The notes below the pieces were generated by a model. That model saw nothing but the letters and a program-made list of their open reading frames with translations, had not been told where the DNA came from and did no database searches. The position numbers and the translations under genes are program-made. Below are positions 26,941-61,600 of a DNA stretch of 64,000 bases, in pieces (positions within the stretch are counted from its first letter, which is position 1; every line of letters starts with the position of its first letter). Origin of the DNA: Escherichia phage vB_EcoP-101114BS3. The stretch is from the sequence record MZ234015.1, one strand, 5' to 3'.

Positions 26941-28158
26941 CTATTTATTAAAGAATAATTTTTCCATAATGGTTTCCCACTCTTCTGAGGGGAGGGTTGA
27001 GAACCCGTTTCCGTGAAGCCTGTTTGTCATGCAACTAATAATATTGTACATGTTGTAGCTTCGGGTGGATTCTGTTCCATTGTTCCAGTTATAACCGAAA
27101 ACAATTTTATCGAAGGAGGTTTTATCCGTAGTTACTTCTCGGATGAACTCAACCAAGAGCGATTTCTCTGTGATGACCGCACGTTCACCATCTGGCAGAT
27201 TACAATACTGAGGAAGAAGAATTGGTAAGAACATCGAATTGTTCACTCGACAATCACGAACATCTTCACTGCGATAGATTAGGCTTGAGAAGTCTTCATC
27301 ACGCAGGTGTCCTTCACCTTCAGTGTATTCACACTGTCGCCATTTGGTCTGACGAGGTTCAATCATTGTACTACCAACGCCTACTGTATACAGAGACGCT
27401 TGGAAGATACACGAGTCGTAATCATTCCCTGTTAAAGCAACTTGCTCATTGCCGAACACATCCACTGAAGAGTTAATCAGTCGGCTGAATGCAAGAGAGG
27501 CTAGTGGAGACCAACCTTTCTTATACATCTTGTTCAGCATTTCATACACAGCAGATTTTTCATCATCTGTATAGAATGTACGATTCAGCATCAGATAGAA
27601 CAGAGCGCGATCAGCAGGACAACCATCAGTACAAACACCCATGAATCCTACTTCATGCCATACCAGACATGAGTCAGAATCTTTATCCATGAATGCTTCA
27701 AAGGCTTCCATTACAGCCCTGTCAGTAACATCAGGACGGTTGTTTTCTTCTGCCCATGTTTCTACATGAGAAGGAGGACGAGGGTCTCCATTCTCCACCC
27801 CTTCGCGGAAATATTGAGTGGTAATAGGCTTTTTATCACCATAACGTTTTACACCATAAGCGGGAAGGTGTGTACCAGAGTTCCAGATGTACTTAATTTC
27901 GGACATAGGCATCATGTTTTCGAGAACGTTCTCTTCAGCAGTGCCTTGACGAACCATCATATTTTCACTCCACACCTTAATGCGGATATTCCAGCCGTAG
28001 TTGCTGTCATACGTGTTATAATAATCAGGATCACCATCTTCATCTTCATCATAATCACCACCCTGATAGTAACCTGCTTTCAGGAAACCATAACAAGGAG
28101 GCCAGACGGTTACAACATCATCTGATTCTTTCCAGCTTTGAAGTGTTACAGGGAACAT
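26941..28158 (-). CDS. hypothetical protein in ligase cassette
   Basis: 405-aa ORF, acidic N-terminal region, no motif recognised. Confidence 0.55.
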   Translation of the reverse strand: MFPVTLQSWKESDDVVTVWPPCYGFLKAGYYQGGDYDEDEDGDPDYYNTYDSNYGWNIRIKVWSENMMVRQGTAEENVLENMMPMSEIKYIWNSGTHLPAYGVKRYGDKKPITTQYFREGVENGDPRPPSHVETWAEENNRPDVTDRAVMEAFEAFMDKDSDSCLVWHEVGFMGVCTDGCPADRALFYLMLNRTFYTDDEKSAVYEMLNKMYKKGWSPLASLAFSRLINSSVDVFGNEQVALTGNDYDSCIFQASLYTVGVGSTMIEPRQTKWRQCEYTEGEGHLRDEDFSSLIYRSEDVRDCRVNNSMFLPILLPQYCNLPDGERAVITEKSLLVEFIREVTTDKTSFDKIVFGYNWNNGTESTRSYNMYNIISCMTNRLHGNGFSTLPSEEWETIMEKLFFNK

Positions 28159-28169
28159 CTTTTACCTCT

Positions 28170-28532
28170 TTACTCTGCTACCAAAAGGCTCAGAGATTTG
28201 CGAATGTAGTCAATACTACGGAAGTTTCGATAGTTCTCTTGGAAGCGCATTTTTTCAAACTCTGCTTCCTGAAGCTCTACCTCTGCTGCTTTATATCCTG
28301 ATAAAGCTAAACTTACCACATCCTGAGGTAAGGTATTACGACGGCGAATAAGATATTTATTCGCTTTTAGTTTACCTTGTGCACGAGCCATTTTGGCCTT
28401 TGCCGCCTTGATACCATGAGAAATCCAAAGCAGTTGCTGTTTCAGATCTTCCTCATCCATACCACCTAAATCATTTGCTACTTTATGCAGCGTAGACAGG
28501 TTCACATGGCCTTTAATGGGGCGTAGGTTCAT
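28170..28532 (-). CDS. hypothetical protein
   Basis: 120-aa ORF. Confidence 0.5.
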   Translation of the reverse strand: MNLRPIKGHVNLSTLHKVANDLGGMDEEDLKQQLLWISHGIKAAKAKMARAQGKLKANKYLIRRRNTLPQDVVSLALSGYKAAEVELQEAEFEKMRFQENYRNFRSIDYIRKSLSLLVAE

Positions 28533-28696
28533 AACTTCTCCTGTTTGTCACATTGATTGGTTAGCCAGTTGTAAGACCCACTGTTGTTCTTGCTTAACTC
28601 GCAAGATGCAAAAGAGTACATCCTGACAAACCCCACAGTGGCTAAGCAAATAAAGATTGCTGCCAATAAGAATTTAGCTTTCAACTTATTATCCAT
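28529..28696 (-). CDS. small membrane/secreted protein (55 aa)
   Basis: Below ORF-track cutoff; hydrophobic KFLLAAIFICLATVGF; stop overlaps next ATG. Confidence 0.3.
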   Translation of the reverse strand: MDNKLKAKFLLAAIFICLATVGFVRMYSFASCELSKNNSGSYNWLTNQCDKQEKL

Positions 28697-28898
28697 ACAA
28701 CCTCTTCTTTGAGCTTAAAAAAGGACTCTCCTAAGAGAGCCAAGCTTTAAGGCCAATTAAATAGATATCACCCAATATCTGTGGATAACCTGCTCTTAAA
28801 ATATTCTATCCGACGGATGTTCGAGGATTATTCCTCTCCCTAGCATCGGCCCCATACGGGAAAGATTAAATTAAGTTTAGGTTAGTTGAGCCAGAATA

Positions 28899-28934
28899 GC
28901 TCACATAGCCCTCTGATACTCACAAGGGCTATAG
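28899..28934 (-). repeat. conserved stem-loop element, copy 1 (ATAGCCC-14 nt-GGGCTAT)
   Basis: Near-identical to 34537..34570; abuts stop of a GDxF-family gene. Confidence 0.5.
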
Positions 28935-28937
28935 ATG

Positions 28938-29186
28938 TTACTCTGTGGCTCCGTCGAATCGGAGGATTGCTGCTGGAACAGGGTATGCTTCCAGATCTTC
29001 ATCCAGTCGGTATAGATGCCCTGTACTTAAATTTACAGCTGTTACTGGCTTAGAGTGGCCTCCAGCCTGTATGGAAGGAACTCTGATAAAGAACTCTTCT
29101 GGATATTCAACAGAGTGGAACACACTTCCTGAATAAAGATCTTTTATTTTAGAAGTTTGTTTAGGAGTTTTATCAGCAATTTTCAT
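28938..29186 (-). CDS. small protein, GDxF-motif family (5 copies)
   Basis: Alignable with 34583..34813, 30577..30831, 30307..30573, 33392..33643. Confidence 0.5.
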   Translation of the reverse strand: MKIADKTPKQTSKIKDLYSGSVFHSVEYPEEFFIRVPSIQAGGHSKPVTAVNLSTGHLYRLDEDLEAYPVPAAILRFDGATE

Positions 29187-29419
29187 TACAGACCTTTCTT
29201 AGCACGATCTTTGGCAGTTTTGCCAGTGCGGATACGATGGGAAACATTAACCAGCTCGCCACCTTCGACGATGGTTACGCTTTTGTTTTTCGCAATATCA
29301 AACACAGTTTTCTCTGTGCCGCCCAGACGAATCTGTTTAGGCTCACTGTGGGTCTGAGTTGATTTAGACTGGAACTGGAACGGCTGACGGATGGCATCAA
29401 TTGCGCTAACTTTAGACAT
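29186..29419 (-). CDS. hypothetical protein
   Basis: 77-aa ORF. Confidence 0.45.
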   Translation of the reverse strand: MSKVSAIDAIRQPFQFQSKSTQTHSEPKQIRLGGTEKTVFDIAKNKSVTIVEGGELVNVSHRIRTGKTAKDRAKKGL

Positions 29420-29447
29420 GTTTTTATTACCTTACATTAAAGAGAGA

Positions 29448-29861
29448 TTAAACAACGAATTGGAACGCTTCGTATCCAAACTTGTATAAGAAATCGTGTT
29501 TGAACTTTACTACACGACCACGATCGCGGAAAGCTTTCAGGCGACTGCTGAACCCAACCATTGGCTCAGGGTCAATAGGGCTACGAATCTTCATAGCTAC
29601 AGAGTGCAGCTTGAAGCGTTTACCAGTGCTACAGGCCATCATCACATACTCCATACGAGTAGTCCAGATGTTGAGCACCATGCTTGTTTTCTCCGCTGAC
29701 CAACCAGTCTTGCGGGCGATTTCTTTATGGACATTAAGCTCCAAAGGAAGAGGGAATTGCTTGTTGAATGAAGCCGGATATAGCTTGACCAGAAGGTCAA
29801 TGTTTTCTTTATACGTTAAGTAAGCCAATTTCTTGCTTACGTTAGGGAATTTCCCAGACAT
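29448..29861 (-). CDS. ProQ/FinO-domain-like RNA-binding protein
   Basis: LVKLYPASFNKQFPLPLELNVHKEIARKTGWSAEKTSMVLNIWTTRMEY parallels ProQ N-terminal domain pattern. Confidence 0.45.
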   Translation of the reverse strand: MSGKFPNVSKKLAYLTYKENIDLLVKLYPASFNKQFPLPLELNVHKEIARKTGWSAEKTSMVLNIWTTRMEYVMMACSTGKRFKLHSVAMKIRSPIDPEPMVGFSSRLKAFRDRGRVVKFKHDFLYKFGYEAFQFVV

Positions 29862-30059
29862 TTTTGAAGCTCCAAAACAGCGCCGAAAAGAGAGGCGTCA
29901 TAGTAGCTAAAAGGAGGAGAGAAGAGGGCTTATTTACTTGCCTTTTTCTGTCCGTTAATGTACCAGATAACTGAACCGTCAGGCTGTCGTTGACCGAAGC
30001 CTTTCAAGTTAACCATTTCTTCTTCAGAGTAGGCACGTTTTCTCACTGATTTTCTCCTG

Positions 30060-30317
30060 TCAGTAGAAGGTGTGTGTAGAGTCGTCGTTCATAGATAACC
30101 AAACGAAGAAGACAATCACACAGAAAGCAATAATACCGAGAGTTGCAAGGATTATAGTGTTAGCTAATGTGATATCTAACACGCTTTGCAGATATATAAA
30201 GAACTGTACGACACCACATACCATCAGCACAACCCCAACGACAATGAGGAGCCAATATGTGCAGAGAAGGACTGCATCTAATAGTGATACATACTTTGGA
30301 TGATCTTTATGTCTCAC
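30060..30317 (-). CDS. small membrane protein
   Basis: 85 aa with two long hydrophobic segments. Confidence 0.5.
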   Translation of the reverse strand: MRHKDHPKYVSLLDAVLLCTYWLLIVVGVVLMVCGVVQFFIYLQSVLDITLANTIILATLGIIAFCVIVFFVWLSMNDDSTHTFY

Positions 30318-30573
30318 TGATCTTTTCCACTAAATCCAGAGTTGCTGATTCAAATACAACACCAACTACCATATTAGGTGCCATATTACGAACGTATCCG
30401 CTCTGCATAGACACGGCCCGAGAGTATTCAGAACCGTTAGAACTTTTGTTTACCTTCATGTAAAGGGTTTGCTCTTTATCTTCTTTCAGAGTAAAGAAAG
30501 AGCCGGGAAGAAGCCTCTGAACAGTCAGAGGGATATCTGCAACATGAGTCTTATTGATAGTAAGAACTGTCAT
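30307..30573 (-). CDS. small protein, GDxF-motif family
   Basis: LLPGSFFTLKEDKEQTLYMKV motif. Confidence 0.45.
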   Translation of the reverse strand: MTVLTINKTHVADIPLTVQRLLPGSFFTLKEDKEQTLYMKVNKSSNGSEYSRAVSMQSGYVRNMAPNMVVGVVFESATLDLVEKISET

Positions 30574-30576
30574 TGC

Positions 30577-30831
30577 TTATTCCTTAATAGTTGCTTCAGC
30601 TTTAATAGGAATAACAGCAACATCTTTACGAGGTGCTGTCGCTCGACCTGTGTTAAGGCAGGCTACAAGTCTATGCTCGTCCGCACCCTTGATGCAGAGT
30701 CGAGTTGAGAACTCAGTAGACAGCAAGATGTACAAATCATCATCTTCACTGTTAGGGTACATGAAGCAATCCCCAAGTCGTAAAGCACTGAGAGGTATTG
30801 CACTCTTACCTGCTGGTTTATTAACTTTCAT
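30577..30831 (-). CDS. small protein, GDxF-motif family
   Basis: LRLGDCFMYPNSEDDDLYIL...VAVIPI. Confidence 0.5.
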   Translation of the reverse strand: MKVNKPAGKSAIPLSALRLGDCFMYPNSEDDDLYILLSTEFSTRLCIKGADEHRLVACLNTGRATAPRKDVAVIPIKAEATIKE

Positions 30832-31107
30832 TTTACCACCTTTAGTTATGGACCAATTTATGAGAGAACTCTCGGAAGAATGCTTTCATAAATAGGGGGA
30901 GGGGACGAATCCTCCCATATCCTATTAATTAATATTGCATGTAAGATCTAACAATTCGATGCTGTAGTGGATAGCGTAAAACGCTTACCGGCATTAAACC
31001 CAGCCCATGAGGGGCTTATGTGAATAAAATGCTCAACATTGAGCGGTTAGTTGATAGGAGATCTGAAGTCCTATCTCAAAGGACTCTCGTAAGAATCCTT
31101 CACGATA

Positions 31108-31362
31108 TCACTTAGTAAGAAAGATTATCAACTTATCCGCTACCCAGCCTATTAACATAAGGACAGGTAAGAAGAAGATAAAGATCAGCATAAAAGGCCA
31201 GAAGAATATCACCGTCCAAATAGAAAGTATATCAGGCTGACCACTCCATGAGCAGTGGAAGAAGTTGTAGAGTGTATTGGTTTTGAAGCACCATTTAACT
31301 ACAATGGCTGCTAACCACCAACCAATAACATAAATCAGGAGGACATACGCTGCTGTAACCAT
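31108..31362 (-). CDS. small membrane protein
   Basis: 84 aa, hydrophobic throughout. Confidence 0.5.
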   Translation of the reverse strand: MVTAAYVLLIYVIGWWLAAIVVKWCFKTNTLYNFFHCSWSGQPDILSIWTVIFFWPFMLIFIFFLPVLMLIGWVADKLIIFLTK

Positions 31363-31589
31363 TCACCGTTCCATTGATAGTTGCGAGTTACCACGTTTCC
31401 GTGGATAAGGAAGTGCTGGCGGCGAAGGATATCTTTAACGTTGTAGTAGGCAGCGTTACCGAGATGACCTTCTTTAATAAGCCAACGAAGATTACGGATA
31501 TCAACCAACAGCATTTTTACTTGCTGTTGGCATGAAGTTTGAGCTGCTGTTTCAAGTAGAGCTTTCGTATCAGAATAATGACCGGACAT
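31335..31589 (-). CDS. hypothetical protein
   Basis: 84-aa ORF. Confidence 0.45.
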   Translation of the reverse strand: MSGHYSDTKALLETAAQTSCQQQVKMLLVDIRNLRWLIKEGHLGNAAYYNVKDILRRQHFLIHGNVVTRNYQWNGEWLQQRMSS

Positions 31590-31590
31590 A

Positions 31591-31917
31591 TCACCACTCC
31601 TTACCCTTTGTTGTTACAGAGCCACTACACTGTACACCACGGGAGATAAAGTCATAACGCGACCAATCACCTTGTGTCTCCATATCACGCCCTACATAAG
31701 CCTTCTCATCAACAGCACCGCCGTTGGAACAAGAAGCACCAGCATAACGCATATCAATTTCACCACTAGGAATCTTCTCCCCGCTGTGCCAACGGGAAAC
31801 ACAGACACCTTCTACCGATAATGCACACCATCCATCAGGACGATGCTGTACGCAGCCTGTAAGAGCTACACAGGCGATAAAGATACAGGTTAAGGTAATT
31901 ACACCACCCCAGCTCAT
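31591..31917 (-). CDS. Cys-rich lipoprotein
   Basis: Signal peptide ending in lipobox LTGC; 8 further Cys. Confidence 0.55.
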   Translation of the reverse strand: MSWGGVITLTCIFIACVALTGCVQHRPDGWCALSVEGVCVSRWHSGEKIPSGEIDMRYAGASCSNGGAVDEKAYVGRDMETQGDWSRYDFISRGVQCSGSVTTKGKEW

Positions 31918-32054
31918 AATCCCTCCTGAAGCGCCTTACGGCGGCTATCTCGCCAAGCCATCCATAGGTAGGTTTTAAGTTCTTCTCTTTCTTCTTCGCT
32001 GAACAAAGGAGAAGTAAAGATATCATCGAACCACTCATTAAACTCAGGGGTCAT
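31914..32054 (-). CDS. small hypothetical protein (46 aa)
   Basis: Below ORF-track cutoff; strong RBS AGGAGG; stop overlaps lipoprotein ATG. Confidence 0.45.
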   Translation of the reverse strand: MTPEFNEWFDDIFTSPLFSEEEREELKTYLWMAWRDSRRKALQEGL

Positions 32055-32193
32055 AAACCCTCCTATTTGATTTGGTGGACTATCTGGAATCGAACCAGAA
32101 GCTCACTAAGAAAGCAATTCCCACTGTTATAAAAGCACTTGCCTCAACAGGGATACACTAACTTTGGTGCCGCACCCATACTAGCCCTAAATG

Positions 32194-32269
32194 TGGTGCG
32201 CCCTACAGGACTCGAACCTGTAACCAATAGCTTAGAAGGCTACTGCTCTATCCGTTGAGCTAAGAGCGC
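32194..32269 (-). tRNA. tRNA-Arg (anticodon UCU)
   Basis: Hand-folded cloverleaf: 7-bp acceptor with one G-U, D arm GCTC/GAGC, anticodon loop CTTCTAA (U33, UCU, A37), T arm ACAGG-TTCGAGT-CCTGT, encoded CCA. Confidence 0.9.
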
Positions 32270-32277
32270 GGAATTGT

Positions 32278-32487
32278 TTAACTGAAGATACGCAAGGCCA
32301 CATCATGACCAATATGACCGGGAACTTTATGCTGCTCTATTTTCAAGCAGCGCTTACAGATACGAGATACACGAGACTCTTTTCTCTCTACTGGAGTGTC
32401 TTTAGCGTGAGTGATGTGTAGGTTTTCAGTGATCACCCACTCGTGTTTACATCCAGAATCTTCGGGCTTTTTCTTACGAAAGAACAT
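32278..32487 (-). CDS. small zinc-ribbon-like protein, tandem paralog 3 of 3
   Basis: Start moved to MFFRKKK (RBS GAGGTG); C.H..W ... C..C pattern shared with two upstream genes. Confidence 0.5.
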   Translation of the reverse strand: MFFRKKKPEDSGCKHEWVITENLHITHAKDTPVERKESRVSRICKRCLKIEQHKVPGHIGHDVALRIFS

Positions 32488-32495
32488 AACACCTC

Positions 32496-32660
32496 TTAGA
32501 TCAGATCTGTTTTCTTGTGCAGACCACACACTTTACAGCGAGAGTAGATACGCAACCCTTGTCGCTCTCTGTCAGTAAGTTTATTTGTGATCGTCAGTTC
32601 ATAAGTATGAAGATCTTCCCACTCATGGAAATGAAATAGACGTTTGAACCATTTGATCAT
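32496..32660 (-). CDS. small zinc-ribbon-like protein, tandem paralog 2 of 3 (54 aa)
   Basis: Below ORF-track cutoff; MIKWFKRLFHFHEW...CKVCG nearly parallel to 32670..32855. Confidence 0.45.
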   Translation of the reverse strand: MIKWFKRLFHFHEWEDLHTYELTITNKLTDRERQGLRIYSRCKVCGLHKKTDLI

Positions 32661-32669
32661 AATGATTCC

Positions 32670-32855
32670 TTAGATTACATCACGATGACTAATATCACCA
32701 CACACCTTACACTGAATAATGTAACGTGTGCCCTTGTCATTGTTCCCATCTGAATCCGTATAGACCAGAGGACGGGTGTTAATAATCTTCCAATCATGAC
32801 AATGGAAGACACGCTTTAGCCACTTAATCATATTAAGCACACGCCGGTAATTCAA
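32670..32855 (-). CDS. small zinc-ribbon-like protein, tandem paralog 1 of 3
   Basis: MIKWLKRVFHCHDW...CKVCG. Confidence 0.5.
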   Translation of the reverse strand: MNYRRVLNMIKWLKRVFHCHDWKIINTRPLVYTDSDGNNDKGTRYIIQCKVCGDISHRDVI

Positions 32856-33090
32856 TTAACTGAGGAGTACGACAAGGGCCATCCTCATACACACCTACCA
32901 GTGTTGGCATGTAAGGCCCAGCGCACTGGTATTCATCGAACAGTTCATTGTAAGTAGGCTTCCACTTCCAAGCCCACACATAACCCATTCGATCAATGGC
33001 AATGTAACGAGTGTTCAGAGGAACCTGCATCATCACATCACCAACTGCTATTACTTTCGTAATAACTGCTGCTCGGAAGTTTGTCTTCAT
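32833..33090 (-). CDS. hypothetical protein
   Basis: 85-aa ORF. Confidence 0.45.
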   Translation of the reverse strand: MKTNFRAAVITKVIAVGDVMMQVPLNTRYIAIDRMGYVWAWKWKPTYNELFDEYQCAGPYMPTLVGVYEDGPCRTPQLIELPACA

Positions 33091-33395
33091 GACTTTGCAG
33101 CCTCCATCATTTTATTCATTTTAGCCACACCTTTACGGATAAGAGGCATAAATTCATCAGCCAGTTCAGTGGATAAAAGTTTAAGCCCGCCTGATTTAAT
33201 ACCGTTCACCGCCTTCTCAACTTCATCCGACAGCAATGTCATTGTTAACCACGGGGATTTTATTACCACAGTAAAGCCCGGTTCATACCGCGAGTGACTG
33301 TAGGTGAACTCTAAATGAGTAACACCGGGCATCTTAGACATTTGAGCACGGATATCTACATTAGGGTTGCAGCGAGTTGAAGATGAAATTGTCAT
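33087..33395 (-). CDS. hypothetical protein
   Basis: 102-aa ORF. Confidence 0.5.
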   Translation of the reverse strand: MTISSSTRCNPNVDIRAQMSKMPGVTHLEFTYSHSRYEPGFTVVIKSPWLTMTLLSDEVEKAVNGIKSGGLKLLSTELADEFMPLIRKGVAKMNKMMEAAKS

Positions 33396-33643
33396 GGCGC
33401 TTTAATCTCAATCTGAACGTTGACGACGAATACAGTATGGTTTGCACTGTACACTGAAGTGCCTATGATTGGCTTATCATCACTGAGGATTTCAACAGCG
33501 TGCTCAAGGTTAATCTTCAGATGAAGACGCCCTGATTCCATGAAGAAATCACCAGCACGTATCTCACCGAACTTAGCTGGCACACCGATAGAGGGTATCA
33601 GTATGTCAGTGCGACCTTTACGGTCAAATAAACGATTGAACAT
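33392..33643 (-). CDS. small protein, GDxF-motif family (divergent)
   Basis: IRAGDFFMESGRLHLKIN motif. Confidence 0.45.
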   Translation of the reverse strand: MFNRLFDRKGRTDILIPSIGVPAKFGEIRAGDFFMESGRLHLKINLEHAVEILSDDKPIIGTSVYSANHTVFVVNVQIEIKAP

Positions 33644-33652
33644 ATCACCCCC

Positions 33653-33862
33653 TTATGTAATATCAACCTCAAACCAACAGGTAAGAGCTTTTTCATTGTT
33701 GCGTTTTGGCTCAAAGGATTTAACAACCGATAACACTCGGCGCTGTTCTCCATCAAACCAGATAGTTTCATCTTTTTCAGGGAGTAGGTTGTGTGCAGCA
33801 CAAACAATCTCACCTAGTACAACCTGTCTGCCATCTTGCTTACGAACTAAACGAATGTTCAT
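33653..33862 (-). CDS. hypothetical protein
   Basis: Start moved to MNIRLV (RBS GAGAGG); upstream part of ORF overlaps a terminator-like hairpin. Confidence 0.4.
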   Translation of the reverse strand: MNIRLVRKQDGRQVVLGEIVCAAHNLLPEKDETIWFDGEQRRVLSVVKSFEPKRNNEKALTCWFEVDIT

Positions 33863-33942
33863 AACAACCTCTCTTGTTAGTTTAAGTAAGAGTTGTCCCT
33901 TAATTAAAACAACAAAGGCCACCCCTAAGGGCAGCCTCTTAT

Positions 33943-34158
33943 TTAAGCGCAAGCACTACGCAGTTTGTTATTCAAGAAGCGATCTTCTGCATTATACAGG
34001 AATGCATAGAACAACTCTTTTGCTACATCCCGATCGCAATTGAGACATTTAGAGATCTGTAACAACAAACCATCACGACTATTAGGATGGTCAATTATCG
34101 CAAGACGAATAATCTCACGAATACCAATGTCATGCTCAGCCGCCATAGAACCAATCAC
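33943..34158 (-). CDS. hypothetical protein
   Basis: 71-aa ORF; start uncertain. Confidence 0.4.
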   Translation of the reverse strand: MIGSMAAEHDIGIREIIRLAIIDHPNSRDGLLLQISKCLNCDRDVAKELFYAFLYNAEDRFLNNKLRSACA

Positions 34159-34536
34159 CCTGACGTTTACGAATGTTAGTTGTCAGACGAAGCATGGCAG
34201 ACTCAATCTTCAGAGCACCATTTGCTACTGCATCCATACGTTCAGGACGGTTCATACGTTTGGTTGTCTTTTTCATAATGTTCTCTCTTTATTGATGGAG
34301 GCAGGATTGCCAGTTAATATAAAGGGAAGCCCTACACGTTAAGACTTCCGCTTGTACAAACTGTCGAGAACTCTCTACCCCTAGATTGTTCTCTATCCCA
34401 AACCGATACATACCCCTACATATCGGAAAGCTGTTCGAAAATTAACAGGTTTTAGTCTATCACCGGATGTTTGAGACAAGTCTCGCCCTAGCGGTGAGCC
34501 ATATGGCGTTGAGATTATAGTTAATTGAGGAACACC

Positions 34537-34570
34537 CTCACATAGCCCTCTGATAAACACAAGGGCTATA
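34537..34570 (-). repeat. conserved stem-loop element, copy 2
   Basis: Differs from copy 1 at only 2-3 loop positions; 12 nt after stop of 34583..34813. Confidence 0.5.
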
Positions 34571-34582
34571 AGTCGATGTTAC

Positions 34583-34813
34583 TTAACCATTAATATGAGT
34601 TACTTGAACATCAGGTACAGGGATAACTTCATGGTCTTCCTGTAATTGGAACAGTGTCCCCTGACTAAGACCAACCACACGATGCATATCGTTAAGTCTA
34701 GTGTCTGTCTTTAGGTAGACATTTTCAGAGTTAGTTGGTAAACGGAACACATCGCCCGGACGTAACTCACTGAGCTTTTTAGTAACAACTACAGAGAAGA
34801 GATTAATTTTCAT
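34583..34813 (-). CDS. small protein, GDxF-motif family
   Basis: LRPGDVFRLPTNSENVYLKT...VIPVP. Confidence 0.5.
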   Translation of the reverse strand: MKINLFSVVVTKKLSELRPGDVFRLPTNSENVYLKTDTRLNDMHRVVGLSQGTLFQLQEDHEVIPVPDVQVTHING

Positions 34814-34969
34814 TTGATTAACACCAAATCAGTACGACGTTCGAAGGAAGGGGAGGATTCACCATTCCACTGAACAAGATAACAGAGAACACCATCAATC
34901 GTTGTTCTCCGACGAATAACACCTGTAACAGTTCCACCAACAAGACGAACGGTGTCGCCAACGGTAAAT

Positions 34970-35275
34970 TTAACCTTTGAGCGCATCTCCTGTTTCCTCA
35001 TTCTGGCGTTTAATTTCTTCAGTGAGTTGCTTATTAAGATCTTGAATACGCTTAATCTCCCAACCCAAAGAAGCCAAACGATCGTTACGTGCTTCGATTT
35101 GTTCCTGCATTTTAAGTAATTTGGAACGAACATCAGCATTAAAAACTTCTTCTTGCTTAAGAAGGAACTCGTAACGACGCTTCCAGCTTGCTGATTTATT
35201 TCTTAAAATAATAAACCCTAGAGTAGAAACCGTTACAGTGAGTACGAAAAGGAACTTATAAACCTCTAAAGACAT
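34970..35275 (-). CDS. membrane-anchored coiled-coil protein
   Basis: N-terminal TM helix then heptad-rich region. Confidence 0.45.
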   Translation of the reverse strand: MSLEVYKFLFVLTVTVSTLGFIILRNKSASWKRRYEFLLKQEEVFNADVRSKLLKMQEQIEARNDRLASLGWEIKRIQDLNKQLTEEIKRQNEETGDALKG

Positions 35276-35476
35276 ATCTTTATCCTCTTAAAGTAAGATA
35301 TTATAAGAAATATTATTTAGAATTTATTATTTCTAAACTTAATTCCTATCAATAATTTTCAGAGGTCTATATACAGTCATTACCTCTGGTCCCAAATCAC
35401 TTCCACTTTTTACAGAGAAAATCATAAGTGTGTGATTTATAAGGAAATTTAGTTTGTCAATATTGGCACTTATGAA

Positions 35477-35863
35477 TCAGTCACGGGAGCTGTTATTGAA
35501 CACTAAATCACCACAATACATCGGATTGGTATACCACTTTGGCACCCCTTCGCTCTTACTCTGAAAGTATGTACCGCTGTACAAAGGCACATAACCTTTC
35601 TTCAGTGCACGCCTTGCAAGCCGCTCGCTCTCTCTGATTGATTTCTTTATCAGAGGGTTATCATCACGAATTAGCTTTACATAACGCTTAAAAGGTTTCT
35701 CCTTCTTTAATAGGACGGGTATCCACTCGAACTGGTTTCGTTGATTTATAACCTGCTCGGCAGTCAGTTTTCGTTGTGACATTCTGTTTATTACGGTATC
35801 CGCTACTAATGCTTTGCAAGCGGTTGGCTGATTCCCTGCCTCATAATAAATAGTCAATGTCAA
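35477..35863 (-). CDS. cell-wall hydrolase (SleB/Hydrolase_2-like), candidate endolysin
   Basis: TIYYEAGNQ...VADTVINRM...QFEW pattern. Confidence 0.55.
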   Translation of the reverse strand: MTLTIYYEAGNQPTACKALVADTVINRMSQRKLTAEQVINQRNQFEWIPVLLKKEKPFKRYVKLIRDDNPLIKKSIRESERLARRALKKGYVPLYSGTYFQSKSEGVPKWYTNPMYCGDLVFNNSSRD

Positions 35864-35913
35864 AAGTAGCTGGGCTGTCGTTATCAGAACTTACTACCCC
35901 CTTGTTTTACGGG

Positions 35914-35942
35914 CATAAAAAAGCCCCATCCGAAGACGGGGC
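35914..35942 (-). terminator. terminator-like hairpin (minus strand), one of several in 35.9-36.15 kb
   Basis: GCCCCATC-CGAA-GACGGGGC with U-run on minus strand. Confidence 0.4.
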
Positions 35943-36180
35943 GACCTGAAAGAGTGAACATGACCTCACTCATTTAAGAATCCTCGTAAAGACTCTTAAA
36001 AAAGAGGCCTCGTTAAAGGCCCGGTCAAATGACCATCCAATAGGGATTGAACCATGCCAATGATTCACAAAGGGAGTTCCCTTTAGGTATCACTAGCTAC
36101 GCAAAAAGCCGCACAAAGGCGGCAGACAAAGACGCTCAAGAAGAGCGTCATAGTAGTTGACCACTGGTCCAGAAGAGGGC

Positions 36181-36694: not shown

Positions 36695-36904
36695 TTAATC
36701 AATTAAACTAAACGATTTCCAACTACGTGTAATTGCTACCTTTTCGCCATCAAAGAGAACACTTACAGAGATCAGTTTACCGCGACAACTGGATACCGTG
36801 GTAATACGTCCGGTTAATGCCTTACCTTTATTCAGGTAGTGATAGCGGACACGACGTCCTAACAAACGAGTAGCTTTCTTCTCTAACGTGCTTAAGCTGG
36901 TCAT
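36695..36904 (-). CDS. hypothetical protein
   Basis: 69-aa ORF. Confidence 0.45.
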   Translation of the reverse strand: MTSLSTLEKKATRLLGRRVRYHYLNKGKALTGRITTVSSCRGKLISVSVLFDGEKVAITRSWKSFSLID

Positions 36905-38366: not shown

Positions 38367-39692
38367 CTTTCAATTGTAAGGGCACTATGCCCCGCTCTCT
38401 ATGAGCTTTTTAAGTCACTATTGACTTATCAATAATCACTCAATATCAAGTAATTATTGATAAGCGAGGCGGTCTTATCAGGAGTTAACCTTGCCGCCTC
38501 CTTATCCGTGATGTTTCATCTGGTATCTTTAATTAGTCGCTATAAATAAAGCCGACCTGATAGCGATGATCAATCATCACAATAAGGCAGTGCGTCCGAC
38601 TCTATTTAATTACTTTATCGTAACCGTCGGCAATATCGTCTACTTTGCTTTCGCTCCCGCCTATCCTTTTGTACTAACTCTCAATCGCTAACCATCGCCC
38701 ACTACGGGAGGTTATTGCGAAAGAGTCATTAGCCGTCTAATACATTGACGTTTTATATCTTTCAGCAGGTTTACTACATAAACTGATTATGTACGCCATC
38801 AATAGTGGCCTCAAATCATTCACATCGTAAACGTTCACACTAAACCTTATTGTTAAATAGCAATTTGCCACTTTTTAACCATTCACCGCCGCCCCCAATT
38901 GGGCGTTAATTCGTCGGATTTGCCTACCCTGATAAACTTCTTTCACTGTAGCACCTTGTTAGCGATGGCCGCCGCTACCCTTTAACCGTGGGCGATTAGT
39001 TTAGGCCGTTGCGTGTACTCAATGAATCCGTTTTATCAGTGGTGACGTTTCCAGTTAAGGGATTGTAAAAACTGTTTACCCTGATAATTTAGGGAGTCTT
39101 ACGCCGTTTTATCTGGTATGTTTTCCGATGGTTATTATCATCCAACATATTCAACCGATATAGGAGAATGTTTAAATTGTTAAAGAGCGGTAAATCTATC
39201 AGTGTGCTTTCTCACACTATGCAACTGTTAGCCGTTGTTACGCTTTTCTTAAGCGGTGAATTGCTTAAGTGTGCTCATTATGAATCATGCTGTTTTAGCT
39301 GTCAACCGCTTTTTTAATCTTTTTCGTCGTTCCCTTTATTGGGAGGATATATCAATCAGCTATATTTGATTGAAGATTAAGCGGTAAGGCTTAACTCACG
39401 ATTCATATTTTTAAAGAGCGGTGTTTCTTACTGCTTGGTGAACATTCTATCAGAGTATTTCACCTTGTCAACTCTTTTTATCATCTTCTTTTATTCTATT
39501 CCCTTATCTCGCTTGAATCTATGCGAAAGGGCAAGATGATAAATTGTTAAAGAGCGGGGCACTAAGTGCCGGATGTTTCAAGTCATCGCTGACCGTGTGA
39601 ACATCTTATCATAATGATTCGATGTGTCAACAACTATTTTTCGATTAATGCATCTTGATAAACTAGCGACCGTTAAGGCCGCTAACCTTACC
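38367..39692. other. 1.3-kb ORF-free, hairpin-rich region with repeated 17-mer
   Basis: No ORF of 60 aa or more in any frame; exact 17-mer AAATTGTTAAAGAGCGG at 39174..39190 and 39541..39557 plus partial copies; several perfect inverted repeats. Confidence 0.5.
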
Positions 39693-41692: not shown

Positions 41693-41970
41693 TATTACTA
41701 CTCCTGATAGATGAAAGATTGTTTGTCGTGTGTAGTTACTTAGGCTGATCAACCTTCACTACTCACTATCACCGCTAACTACTTTACATCACTGCTTCAT
41801 TAACGATAATTCAAACTACGATTGCAACTATATATTAAAGGAAAAACATGTCAACCACTTATTTTCAAACTCTTTCATAACTCACTGAATATAAAAGGAA
41901 TTTAATTTACTAAACTTTCTTACTCAGAGATACAGCTTACCAAATAGATGTTATTTTATAACACTTACAG

Positions 41971-42430: not shown

Positions 42431-42540
42431 AATACGGGTGGGATATTACTGGTTAGATATACATGGGTAAATAATGCATGTGTAATATCAATGGGTAGGG
42501 TATTTATGGGTAGGGATACCACTGGTAGCAGGTAGGGCAA
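42431..42540. repeat. iteron-like direct repeat array 2
   Basis: GGGT(A/G) at 42436, 42465, 42493, 42508. Confidence 0.5.
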
Positions 42541-58667: not shown

Positions 58668-61600
58668 ATGGCGCTTTATCCAATAAAATCTTTAGGGGCT
58701 GTAGGGGTTATTGCTGACCAAGCTCCGACTGATTTAGCACCTAATGCTTTCACTAATGCTATCAATGCCCGCTTTGTAGAGCAAAGAGTTTTTAAGACGG
58801 GGGGCAATGCCCCTCTTTCTTATGTAGAAGAAGATAAAGAGATTACACCACTTTCTTTTATATCAATGCCTTTTGACTACTATAGTGCAGGTAATAGCTT
58901 TCTGATTGTTGGTACAGACAAAAAGCTATACAAGCTAACAGATGAAAGTTTGACAGATATTAGCCGAAAGGTTGCTACTGTCACAAAAAGAGCTTCCGCT
59001 TCTATTAAGATATATCCGGTTGTTTCTCAGATTGTTCCTAAAGAAACTTCTATTTCAATGAATTTCAATCAAACTAAAACCTTGGAAGTTTCTATTCTTC
59101 CTGAAGATGCTAATAACACAGCTTTAGTTTGGGAGGTTAGTAATTCTTCTTATGGTAAAGTAGAAGCTGACACCGAGAACCCTAAAACTGCAACCTTGAC
59201 GTCTTATGAAAAAGAAGGGAATTTAGTAGTTACTGTATCAACAGCTGATAAATCTATTAGTGCTCAGATTGCAGTAAACATCATAGATGGTGATTCTGGT
59301 ATCTTCTTAAGTCAGGATACAATAACTGTCCGCAAAGGTGGTAACACAACACTAACTGCTGTTACTGGAAAAACTCCTGTAACTTGGGTCTCTAGTAATG
59401 CTTCTGTTGTGTCTGTAACACCTAATGCTAATACACTGACAGCTACTTTGTCTGCTAATGGTGAGGGTACTGTAACAATAACTGCTGATAACGGAACTAA
59501 GAGTGCTTCTTGTCAAATTACTGTTATACCTCAGATAGACAGTATCACTCTGAGTCAGACAAGCGTTCAAATGAGCAGGGGTACTCAGTATGTTTTAACT
59601 GCTACGGTTAATCCTTCAGATGCTCCCAATAAAAGCATAACTTGGACTTCCTCTAATCCTGCCATTGCCACAGTTTCTGGAAATAGTACAGAAGCGGTAA
59701 TAACAGGGTTACTAGCTGGGTTTACTGAAATCACAGCTGTTACTCAAGAGGGTGATAGATCAGCAACCTGTACAGTGAGAGTTGATTTAGCTGGGAGAAT
59801 GATGCGAACTTCTGCAATGGCTTTATCAGAACCTGTTGTAGATTCTATACAAGAAGAAGAAACCAATAATACTCCTATCGAATCAGAAGAGGTTTTATAT
59901 TTTGTTAATGAGCCATCTGGAGTTGATACCTCAGGGATGTATGAAGGTAACAACTTCTATGATTACTCAAACGTCAATGATATGGAAGGTTTTGCACGAG
60001 CTGCACTTATGTCCAGCGATACTCCGTTGCAATCTTTATCACTAGATATCATCGATGCCTCTCTTGATGTTGGGGAAGATATTGTAATTACAGCCAATGC
60101 TTTGCCTGAGGGAGAGTATTTCTATCAGTGGACAGTGGACAAAGCAGGATATGTTTCAACCACATCTACTACCGGGAAATCTCTAAAACTGACAGCTATT
60201 CGTAAAGGTGAGATCAAAGTTACTTGTACTGCTAGTCAAATGACTCAGAAAGATTATGATGCTTTTGACGACTATCCTTGGTATCACACCATAATCTCTA
60301 ACTGTGCAGTGGCTACCACTCACTATGAAACACCACAGGTCAAAGAATTTGAATCTGAGTATTTCGTAGATCTTCCGGGATGGGGTGAGCAAACAGTCGT
60401 TGATAATGATGGCAACCCTTCTGTTAAGAAATTTAACTGGAAGTGTGAGCGTATTCGTGCATTCAACAACAGACTTTTTGCTCTGAATATGAGGGAATCT
60501 AATGCATCTGGTGTAACTACTCACTACCCTCTAAGACTTCGGTGGTCGAATTTCGCTAACGAAAACAAAGCTCCATCTCTTTGGGATGATTATGCTTATG
60601 ATCGTTTAACAACTTCAGACCTATCAGCAAACATTGTTGGTCAAACTGAGGCTTTGGAAAATGGGTACGCTGGGTATATAGATTTAGCAGATTCTAACGG
60701 AAGCTTGATTGATGTACTTCCTCTGAAAGATTACCTTTTTGTTTACACGGAGTTCGAAACCTACATTGGTTCTCCAACCAATAACACATATCAGCCTCTT
60801 ATGTTTAAGAAGCTGTTTAATGACTCTGGCATACTTGCTCCTGAGTGTGCAGTTGAAGTCGAAGGTGGACACTTCGTAGTAACTCAAAATGATGTGATCT
60901 TACACAATGGTGCATCTAAAAAATCTATAGCATCTAACCGAGTCAAGAATCTTCTCATTAATGAGATCTGTCTAGTAAACCCTCTAGCTACTAGAGTTCA
61001 CCTACACCAAGACAAGAAAGAGGTTTGGGTTTTATATGTAGGTCCGGGAGAGCCTAAAGAGAGTTTTGCTTGTAATAAAGCCGCTGTTTGGAATTATGAG
61101 TTTGACACTTGGTCTTTCCGTACAATACCATATGCTCAGTGTATTGGGTTAGTCGATCCACCAGTTCTTGAGAGAGGTCCAATCTGGGCAGATTTTCAAG
61201 AGATCACTTGGGATGATCCCTCTATTAACCAATTAGTCTGGAGAAAGGATGCTAATAACTTCCGTCAAAGGATTACAATAGTTGGCTCTTTCCTGAAAGG
61301 ATTCTATCAAGTGGATGTTGGTGCTCTGGATTACATCTATGATAGAACCAACGATAGGATTATAGAAAAACCTTTAGAAATGAGGCTAGAAAGAACTGGT
61401 ATTGATTTTGATAGTGTCACTAACGAGTGGAATCAAAAACATATTAATAGATTTAGACCTCAAGTCACTGGTACGGGTACCTATACTTTTGAAGTCGGTG
61501 GAAGTCAATTCTCAAACGAGTATGGACATAATCACTCAACTAAAGAGTTTAGGGTAGGCTCAGATCGTCATGTATCCGTGAGACTGAACCATCCATACCT

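Follow-up and report, generated by a model that had tools for sequence, protein, structure and literature searches.

Are five short genes in the right arm of Escherichia phage vB_EcoP-101114BS3 relatives of one another and, if so, what might their products do in the infected cell? The DNA analysed, hereafter the window, is a stretch of 64,000 nucleotides (nt) of this phage (sequence record MZ234015.1), and its five open reading frames (ORFs) in question, here designated P1 to P5, encode proteins of 76 to 88 amino acids (aa). Small early ORFans are the source of most phage anti-defence and host-takeover factors, and most of them are still unclassified. The original prediction, made on the window by itself, had described the five ORFs as a family of small proteins with common motifs, located in the early region and of a sort that usually marks host-takeover or anti-defence genes diversifying under selection. 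The analysis reported here leads us to hold, with high confidence, that a real paralogous family of SH3-like early proteins exists. Taken as a whole, the best explanation appears to be that of a multi-copy SH3-like early family whose members are candidate binders of host or host-defence factors, and to this composite reading we give an even chance.

Five small genes and their kinship

In megablast, positions 28000-36000 of the window match at 100% the record NC_070982 / MZ234017 (vB_EcoP-101114UKE3, 75.7 kb), a phiEco32-like C3 podophage of the Gordonclarkvirinae, genus Suseptimavirus. All five ORFs are found on the minus strand at the coordinates originally predicted (Table 1), and each coincides with a coding sequence (CDS) of NC_070982 labelled 'hypothetical protein'. 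A Shine-Dalgarno sequence is recognisable for four of the five genes (P1 to P4; that of P1 is AAGAAAGG), while the start codon of P5 overlaps the stop codon of the upstream gene (ATGA). Moreover, the gene-wide ratio of nonsynonymous to synonymous substitution rates (dN/dS), calculated pairwise with the NG86 (Nei-Gojobori) method on seven Suseptimavirus genomes, is 0.21 for P1, 0.19 for P2, 0.05 for P3, 0.11 for P4 and 0.25 for P5, against 0.06-0.46 for the neighbouring genes. Given the annotated CDSs, the Shine-Dalgarno sequences or translational coupling, and the low dN/dS, the five ORFs are protein-coding genes under purifying selection.

Their mutual resemblance is not evident at first sight. 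In a five-way alignment of P1 to P5 pairwise identity amounts to just 12-31%, a level at which chance resemblance needed to be excluded. When all 479 window ORFs of at least 35 aa are searched with phmmer, the top four non-self matches of P5 are precisely the other four proteins, namely P1 (E-value 7e-5), P3 (4e-3), P2 (0.1) and P4 (0.5); several pairs are not significant when compared directly, for instance P2 with P3 (E about 4-6). Firmer links come from the PHROG profiles, which are independent of the alignments built in this analysis and one of which matches each of P1, P2, P3 and P5 over its whole length. The best PHROG of P1 is phrog_6570 (E 4e-14), plus cross-matches; that of P2 is phrog_12612 (E 3e-29), with cross-matches to phrog_6570 (E 6e-4) and phrog_7431; that of P3 is phrog_7832 (E 2e-21); and that of P5 is phrog_16423 (E 7e-24), with five cross-matches including phrog_7832 (4.5e-10) and phrog_6570 (1e-9). 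A broad hidden Markov model (HMM) of the family matches the same four proteins over their full length, with E-values of 1e-20 (P1), 6e-18 (P2), 3e-19 (P3) and 9e-22 (P5). In single-sequence hhalign comparisons of the 451 window ORFs of up to 200 aa with the family, the four proteins obtain 98.6-99.4%, P4 obtains 44% and the next ORF 14.6%.

The case of P4 is more delicate. Its PHROG match is phrog_22099 only, with no cross-match to the PHROGs of the other members, and against family HMMs built without it P4 reaches E-values of 0.5 and 0.02, being with the broader HMM the best non-member among the 479 ORFs. When the four orthologues of P4 are used as a profile, hhalign returns 88.5%, which becomes 95.6% (E 1.3e-8, 56 columns) against a second family alignment; in addition, the orthologue of P4 in phage TH34 matches the family HMM directly (E 7.7e-5). 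Neither the HMM searches nor the hhalign comparisons of the window ORFs reveal further members. On these sequence comparisons P1, P2, P3 and P5 are secure members, joined by P4 as a fifth, divergent one. In other words, the five-member family originally proposed stands for four proteins through PHROG cross-links and phmmer, and more weakly, by profile-profile comparison, for P4; significance under profile methods, which the original prediction had named as its own test, is upheld by PHROG, HMM and hhalign.

The motifs first noticed by eye match the conserved columns of the wider family, which can be summarised as L-x-x-G-(D/S)-x-F, Y-(M/L)-K, V-x-L-x-(T)-G and V-x-P-V. In P5 numbering the conserved columns are L17, G20, D21, F23, Y33, M/L34, K35, V47, L49, G52, V63, P65 and V66. 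Among 143 family sequences G20 and G52 are 100% and F23 is 99% conserved, and none of the three residues varies when P1, P2, P3 and P5 are aligned with their orthologues. P4 retains G-D-F-F, L-K-I and a C-terminal V-x-V block, without the L-x-T-G turn. The conserved columns of the 143 sequences are mainly hydrophobic or glycine; elsewhere most positions vary strongly, and the loop that joins strands 2 and 3 is 8 to 33 residues long. Accordingly, the conserved residues would mainly be core and turn positions. The only conserved basic positions are K2 and K35. The isoelectric point (pI) of the family has a median of 5.7, with 77% of members below 7 and P1 to P5 between 5.9 and 7.7, and the family proteins carry no catalytic motif.

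Predicted fold and spread of the family

An AlphaFold2 model of P5, calculated from 21 sequences, consists of five beta-strands with a predicted local distance difference test (pLDDT) score of 82. The strands form a partly open barrel that has structural matches to SH3-like domains, and the family proteins are thus predicted, on the model of P5, to be stand-alone five-stranded SH3-like beta-barrels. A Foldseek search with this model retrieves no PDB chain at E<=1e-3; in BFVD it retrieves members from Serratia, Erwinia, Proteus, Morganella, Klebsiella and Vibrio phages, and gp21 of phage N4 is among the matches. The likeness to known SH3-like small barrels, such as the uL2 C-terminal domain, the DtxR/IdeR C-domain, FeoA, the VapX antitoxin, the EF-P/eIF5A N-domain, Tudor/KOW and the UvrD C-terminal domain, is one of fold and not of family or function, as no sequence relationship to Pfam SH3-like families or to PDB sequences is detectable. 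Indeed, no Pfam family passes the gathering threshold for P1 to P5, and 79 diverse members yield no family match in Pfam even at E<=10, with just scattered single hits. One of these is YorP, an SH3-like protein of SPbeta, which was considered as a relative on account of its match to one member (E 0.096) and of YonG_N genes located near some members; the candidate was rejected, as Pfam and PDB give no consistent signal. PDB sequences contain no relative of the family.

Two side observations concern other barrels. A bacterial cell-wall protein of 1397 aa with seven SH3b-type repeats (P0038) is matched by the family profile with an E-value of 1.2e-9, summed over many weak stretches; this is a hint that the family and bacterial SH3b domains are remotely alike in sequence, unconfirmed by Pfam scans. 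Moreover, two other small early ORFs of the window (Table 1) look by eye like other SH3/KOW/Tudor-like barrels (e.g. VGDTVRLVGG...LVQWNG) and do not match the family HMM. Judging from these sequences, several small barrels that are unrelated to one another may be encoded in the early arm.

How widely the family is distributed was assessed by an exhaustive profile search, with P1, P2, P3, P5 and their orthologues, of 1.84 billion representative proteins at E<=1e-3. This recovered 242 clusters (50% identity), almost all of 70-90 aa and matched end to end, together with a handful of two-domain fusions of 126-161 aa among them. Three giant matches are repetitive proteins whose score is summed over many weak stretches; one of the three is an SH3b-repeat cell-wall protein, and P0036 and P0037 were rejected as members on this ground. 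PHROGs divides the family among about nine clusters, each labelled 'unknown function' (phrog_7832, 7431, 6570, 8365, 12612, 9955, 16423, 10911 and 34455), of which phrog_7832, phrog_7431 and phrog_6570 are matched by 62-67 of the 79 diverse members. What PHROGs splits would be one superfamily; the phrog_22099 of P4 stands apart and is joined to it here by profile-profile comparison only.

With the family HMM, nine members are found in phiEco32 (phi32_95, 96, 97, 98, 104, 109, 113, 114 and 115), eleven in EP335 and one each in N4 (gp21, E 7e-18), LUZ24 (gp7, E 3e-9) and PaP3 (orf65, E 1.7e-6). The last three proteins are 74-79 aa long and share the conserved motifs of P1 to P5, but are single-copy in their own phages, whereas Gordonclarkvirinae carry 5-11 copies. 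A tblastn search with P5 or the family consensus finds close relatives and two or three weak Vibrio phage matches only. Six distant representatives lead to unrelated metagenomic phage-like contigs (2.8-183 kb), where small genes of unknown function, arranged in arrays, surround them. Each of the six loci contains two or more copies, for the most part side by side, and one includes a fused two-domain gene; multiplicity is thus a habit of the family and not a peculiarity of the window phage. On a 122 kb phage-like contig (JGI 3300059473) a gene with a Gad2 domain (anti-Gabija, PF26128) directly follows a member, P0040, and its probable second copy.

In the literature searched the family is undescribed, and literature on N4 gp21, LUZ24 gp7, the PHROG identifiers and phiEco32 toxicity yields nothing on it. 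PaP3 gp70.1, an RpoS binder, was evaluated as a characterised relative and discarded, as it does not match the family HMM. This protein, LUZ24 gp4 (Mip, 46 aa) and phiEco32 gp79 are similar to the family in size range and have the same niche, being encoded by short genes within early operons that sigma70 drives in related podophages, but none of the three is homologous to the family: the LUZ24 member is gp7 and not gp4, and phiEco32 gp79 is a different protein encoded outside the family gene cluster of that phage. The kind is a familiar one: the family adds to the uncharacterised families of small early proteins, and it is absent from Pfam and PDB.

The leftward arm and the turnover of the repertoire

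P1 to P5 belong to the leftward-transcribed right arm, which is syntenic with phi32_89-128 and with the right arms of SU7 and EP335. The syntenic arm constitutes the early class, defined experimentally in phiEco32 and adopted for SU10 (CDS 69-125) and YF01 (PMC8948821, PMC4281155, PMC9965538). A cluster of three strong sigma70-like promoters upstream of the family (Table 1) matches the three early promoters located between CDS120 and 121 of SU10 (PMC4281155) and, to judge from its sequence, likely drives the arm with the family early in infection. Another strong sigma70-like promoter, situated where the leftward arm ends on the right, corresponds to the one that precedes the last early gene of phiEco32 and SU10 (PMC4281155). 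At the opposite side, a predicted terminator-like hairpin just downstream of P1, at a place where the SU7 record also annotates a (predicted) terminator, may terminate the transcription unit to which the family belongs. Between 28 and 41 kb there is no exact match to TAATGTATA, the motif of phage-sigma promoters; its exact matches in the window are at 1724, 1795, 8281 and 51375 only, all outside the leftward arm. Homology with phiEco32 and SU10 provides good grounds to consider P1 to P5 as early-expressed genes, and the location in the early region proposed by the original prediction thus appears well founded.

Table 1. Coordinates of the family genes and of the other features mentioned in the text (window positions unless another locus is named)
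Feature	Coordinates	Strand	Description
P1	28938..29186	minus	82 aa; gp096 of NC_070982
P2	30307..30573	minus	88 aa; gp101; in tandem with P3, from which it lies 3 nt downstream
P3	30577..30831	minus	84 aa; gp102; long insertion in the beta2-beta3 loop (alignment)
P4	33392..33643	minus	83 aa; gp140; divergent member, placed by profile-profile comparison only
P5	34583..34813	minus	76 aa; gp134; 'hub', nearest to the family consensus
Sigma70-like promoter cluster	39277..39630	minus	three promoters (39630-39603, 39471-39444, 39305-39277); 10-11/12 consensus matches
Sigma70-like promoter	41827..41854	minus	11/12 matches; right end of the leftward arm
Terminator-like hairpin	28724..28741	minus	predicted; just downstream of P1
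Slot by P5, window	34289-34560		unrelated short ORFs
Slot by P5, locus L010	6993-7217		compared with the window slot
Slot by P5, locus L011	6651-6875		compared with the window slot
Slot by P5, locus L013	7092-7316, 7547-7786		compared with the window slot
Slot by P5, locus L012	6333-6563, 7274-7498, 7729-7968		compared with the window slot
Gad2-adjacency locus L006	406-1017		listed with the Gad2 observation
Small-barrel-like ORF	34810-34986	minus	SH3/KOW/Tudor-like by eye
Small-barrel-like ORF	36695-36904	minus	SH3/KOW/Tudor-like by eye
tRNA-Arg	32194-32269	minus	anticodon TCT
Second small pair, first gene	32496-32660	minus	54 aa
Second small pair, second gene	32670-32831	minus	53 aa
Possible relative of the second pair	32278-32487		weak
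ORF labelled 'DNA helicase'	34970-35275	minus	101 aa

A different conclusion is reached on the mode of evolution. The original prediction saw the family as diversifying under selection, a claim with which gene-wide dN/dS values of 0.05-0.25, within the range of the neighbours, do not agree. In particular, P3 and P4 are nearly invariant within Suseptimavirus. P1 occurs within the genus as two allele types about 60% identical, and synonymous divergence (dS) reaches 0.81 for P1, 0.65 for P2 and 0.44 for P5, compared with about 0.2 for the flanking genes. Divergent alleles of P1, P2 and P5 with raised dS point to recombinational allele replacement rather than to fast point substitution.

The number of copies also varies among close relatives. 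Suseptimavirus genomes hold five (the window phage, SU7 and Bas87, the last with the same five genes as the window phage), six (IME267 and Bas88), seven (ECBP2) or eight copies (TH34), with the extra members inserted beside P5 and elsewhere. A cassette slot lies next to P5: an extra member of 74 aa lies immediately downstream of P5 in IME267, Bas88, ECBP2 and TH34, a member of 79 aa lies upstream of P5 in ECBP2 and TH34, and TH34 has a further member of 76 aa. In the window phage the slot downstream of P5 is occupied by unrelated short ORFs; the idea that these are a decayed copy of the 74-aa member was abandoned, as no protein resemblance is seen by eye.

Between genera the divergence is deeper. 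The best counterparts of P1 (EP335 gp089), P2 (phi32_95, 32%) and P5 (phi32_115) are 27-34% identical, and those of P3 and P4 are undetectable, whereas conserved early neighbours are 40-93% identical between genera. Within the window phage the paralogues are as distant from one another as from N4 gp21, which indicates that the duplications are old.

Candidate functions of the family

A small and stably folded barrel, conservation of its core and of the glycine turns with freedom at the other positions and in the loop, a mostly acidic to neutral charge and the lack of a catalytic motif suggest a binding scaffold, and so do tandem multiplication, occasional domain fusion, an accessory-gene placement in the early arm and a rapid turnover of the repertoire. 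We tentatively propose, with a confidence slightly short of even, that the family proteins might bind host or defence factors. Each paralogue would be a non-enzymatic binding scaffold with its own host or host-defence macromolecule as partner; binding soon after infection would modulate this partner without killing the cell; and the repertoire would evolve by old tandem duplication, gain and loss of cassettes and recombinational swapping of divergent alleles, and not by rapid point substitution. Two circumstances favour partners of host or host-defence origin, namely the presence of the family in phages whose replication and transcription machinery is unrelated and the behaviour of the Gordonclarkvirinae, which are unusual in resisting nearly all defence systems tested on them, with no inhibitor known (PMC11990801). 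The only member ever assayed is LUZ24 gp7, one of 13 early proteins expressed in Pseudomonas aeruginosa; it did not belong to the four that inhibited growth (PMC4635203, supplementary table). Its non-inhibitory behaviour speaks against a toxin that shuts off the host and would suit an anti-defence role or a subtle modulator. No homologue among characterised anti-defence or takeover proteins is found by Pfam (including Gad2), PDB sequence or close PDB fold, with no dedicated anti-defence profile library among the resources searched.

Several points weigh against the proposal of host or host-defence binders. Gene-wide dN/dS in the seven genomes is without the signature of an arms race, and the early class of the five genes is borrowed from phiEco32 and SU10. 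The N4 member, gp21, is encoded downstream of the RNAPII genes, in the middle-gene region, so that early timing would not be universal for the family. The AlphaFold2 model of P4, obtained with only five near-identical orthologues, has a pLDDT of 40 and is unusable, and the assignment of the conserved residues to core and turn positions is deduced from residue type. Finally, the adjacency to Gad2 is a single case, and the top structural matches of P5 are SH3-like domains associated with the ribosome or with RNA, as would equally be expected of proteins with a nucleic-acid role.

The partners might instead be found among the phage's own proteins. The family would then consist of adaptors or chaperones for replication, for transcription (the phage sigma factor or a gp79-like factor) or for DNA-modification enzymes, a reading that we consider unlikely though worth keeping in mind. 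It agrees with the absence of toxicity of LUZ24 gp7 for the host and with the location of N4 gp21 among replication-region genes; moreover, the near-invariance of P3 and P4 in the genus is what partners of conserved phage proteins would display. However, copy number varies from five to eight among very close relatives that share the core machinery, and the family occurs in N4, LUZ24/PaP3, Gordonclarkvirinae and metagenomic phages of 100-185 kb, whose replication and transcription systems are unrelated. Its divergence between genera is also far above that of core genes.

The fold neighbours raise another alternative, which we regard as rather improbable: the proteins could be RNA-, ribosome- or DNA-binding regulators, similar to uL2, EF-P/eIF5A, KOW or Tudor, that tune phage or host transcription or translation. 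The structural scores from which the association with ribosome and RNA derives are at the level of fold only, without a sequence relationship to those families, and a mostly acidic or neutral family, with K2 and K35 as its sole conserved basic positions, does not conform to this expectation. The weakest alternative, that short ORFs, perhaps not even genes, resemble one another by chance or through compositional bias, can draw on the low pairwise identities and on the pairs that are non-significant alone, but it is refuted by the profile statistics (the PHROG cross-links of P1, P2, P3 and P5, the 242 full-length relatives recovered and the hhalign result of P4) and by purifying selection, with dN/dS far under 1 in all five annotated CDSs and translation signals at each, and we consider it next to impossible.

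A bolder version of the proposal of host or host-defence binders may be formulated. The family would be a modular and expandable toolkit of binder scaffolds directed against host immunity, in which the variable loop and surface of each paralogue neutralise a different defence system or sensor, and the exchange of cassettes among phages would give rise to new combinations. This version is speculative and on balance improbable; if true, it would explain why nearly all tested defence systems fail against Gordonclarkvirinae, which have 5-11 copies and no known inhibitor. In its milder form as well, the proposal offers a concrete hypothesis for this unexplained resistance. In practical terms, about nine 'unknown' PHROG clusters, N4 gp21, LUZ24 gp7, PaP3 orf65 and 5-11 genes per Gordonclarkvirinae genome are merged into one SH3-like family, habitually multi-copy and arranged in tandem, with a defined set of deletable targets in tractable phages (the BASEL isolates Bas86-93, N4 and LUZ24). 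Should the proteins be inert or act as phage-internal adaptors, the definition of the family would still be useful for annotation.

Some minor observations regard the surroundings of the family. A tRNA-Arg gene lies in the middle of the arm of small early genes and occupies the same place in SU7, phiEco32 and EP335. Close to it, a second small paralogous pair (phmmer E 3e-11) encodes proteins that begin with MIKW(F/L)KR(L/V)FH-x-H-(E/D)-W and have a C-terminal CKVCG, with a zinc-ribbon-like look; their counterparts in phiEco32 and EP335 are 46-52% identical, and a neighbouring ORF is a possible, weak third relative (E 0.3). An ORF near P5 is labelled 'DNA helicase' in several records, as is phi32_116; at 101 aa it is far too short for a helicase, and the label looks like a propagated annotation artefact. 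Lastly, window position 28000 corresponds to position 61294 of the record, which places the end of the linear record near window position 42453, while the window runs to 64000. The window would therefore be permuted with respect to the deposited record or span its ends, with the strand switch between early and late arm in the same place, where the GC skew changes sign (at about 42 kb).

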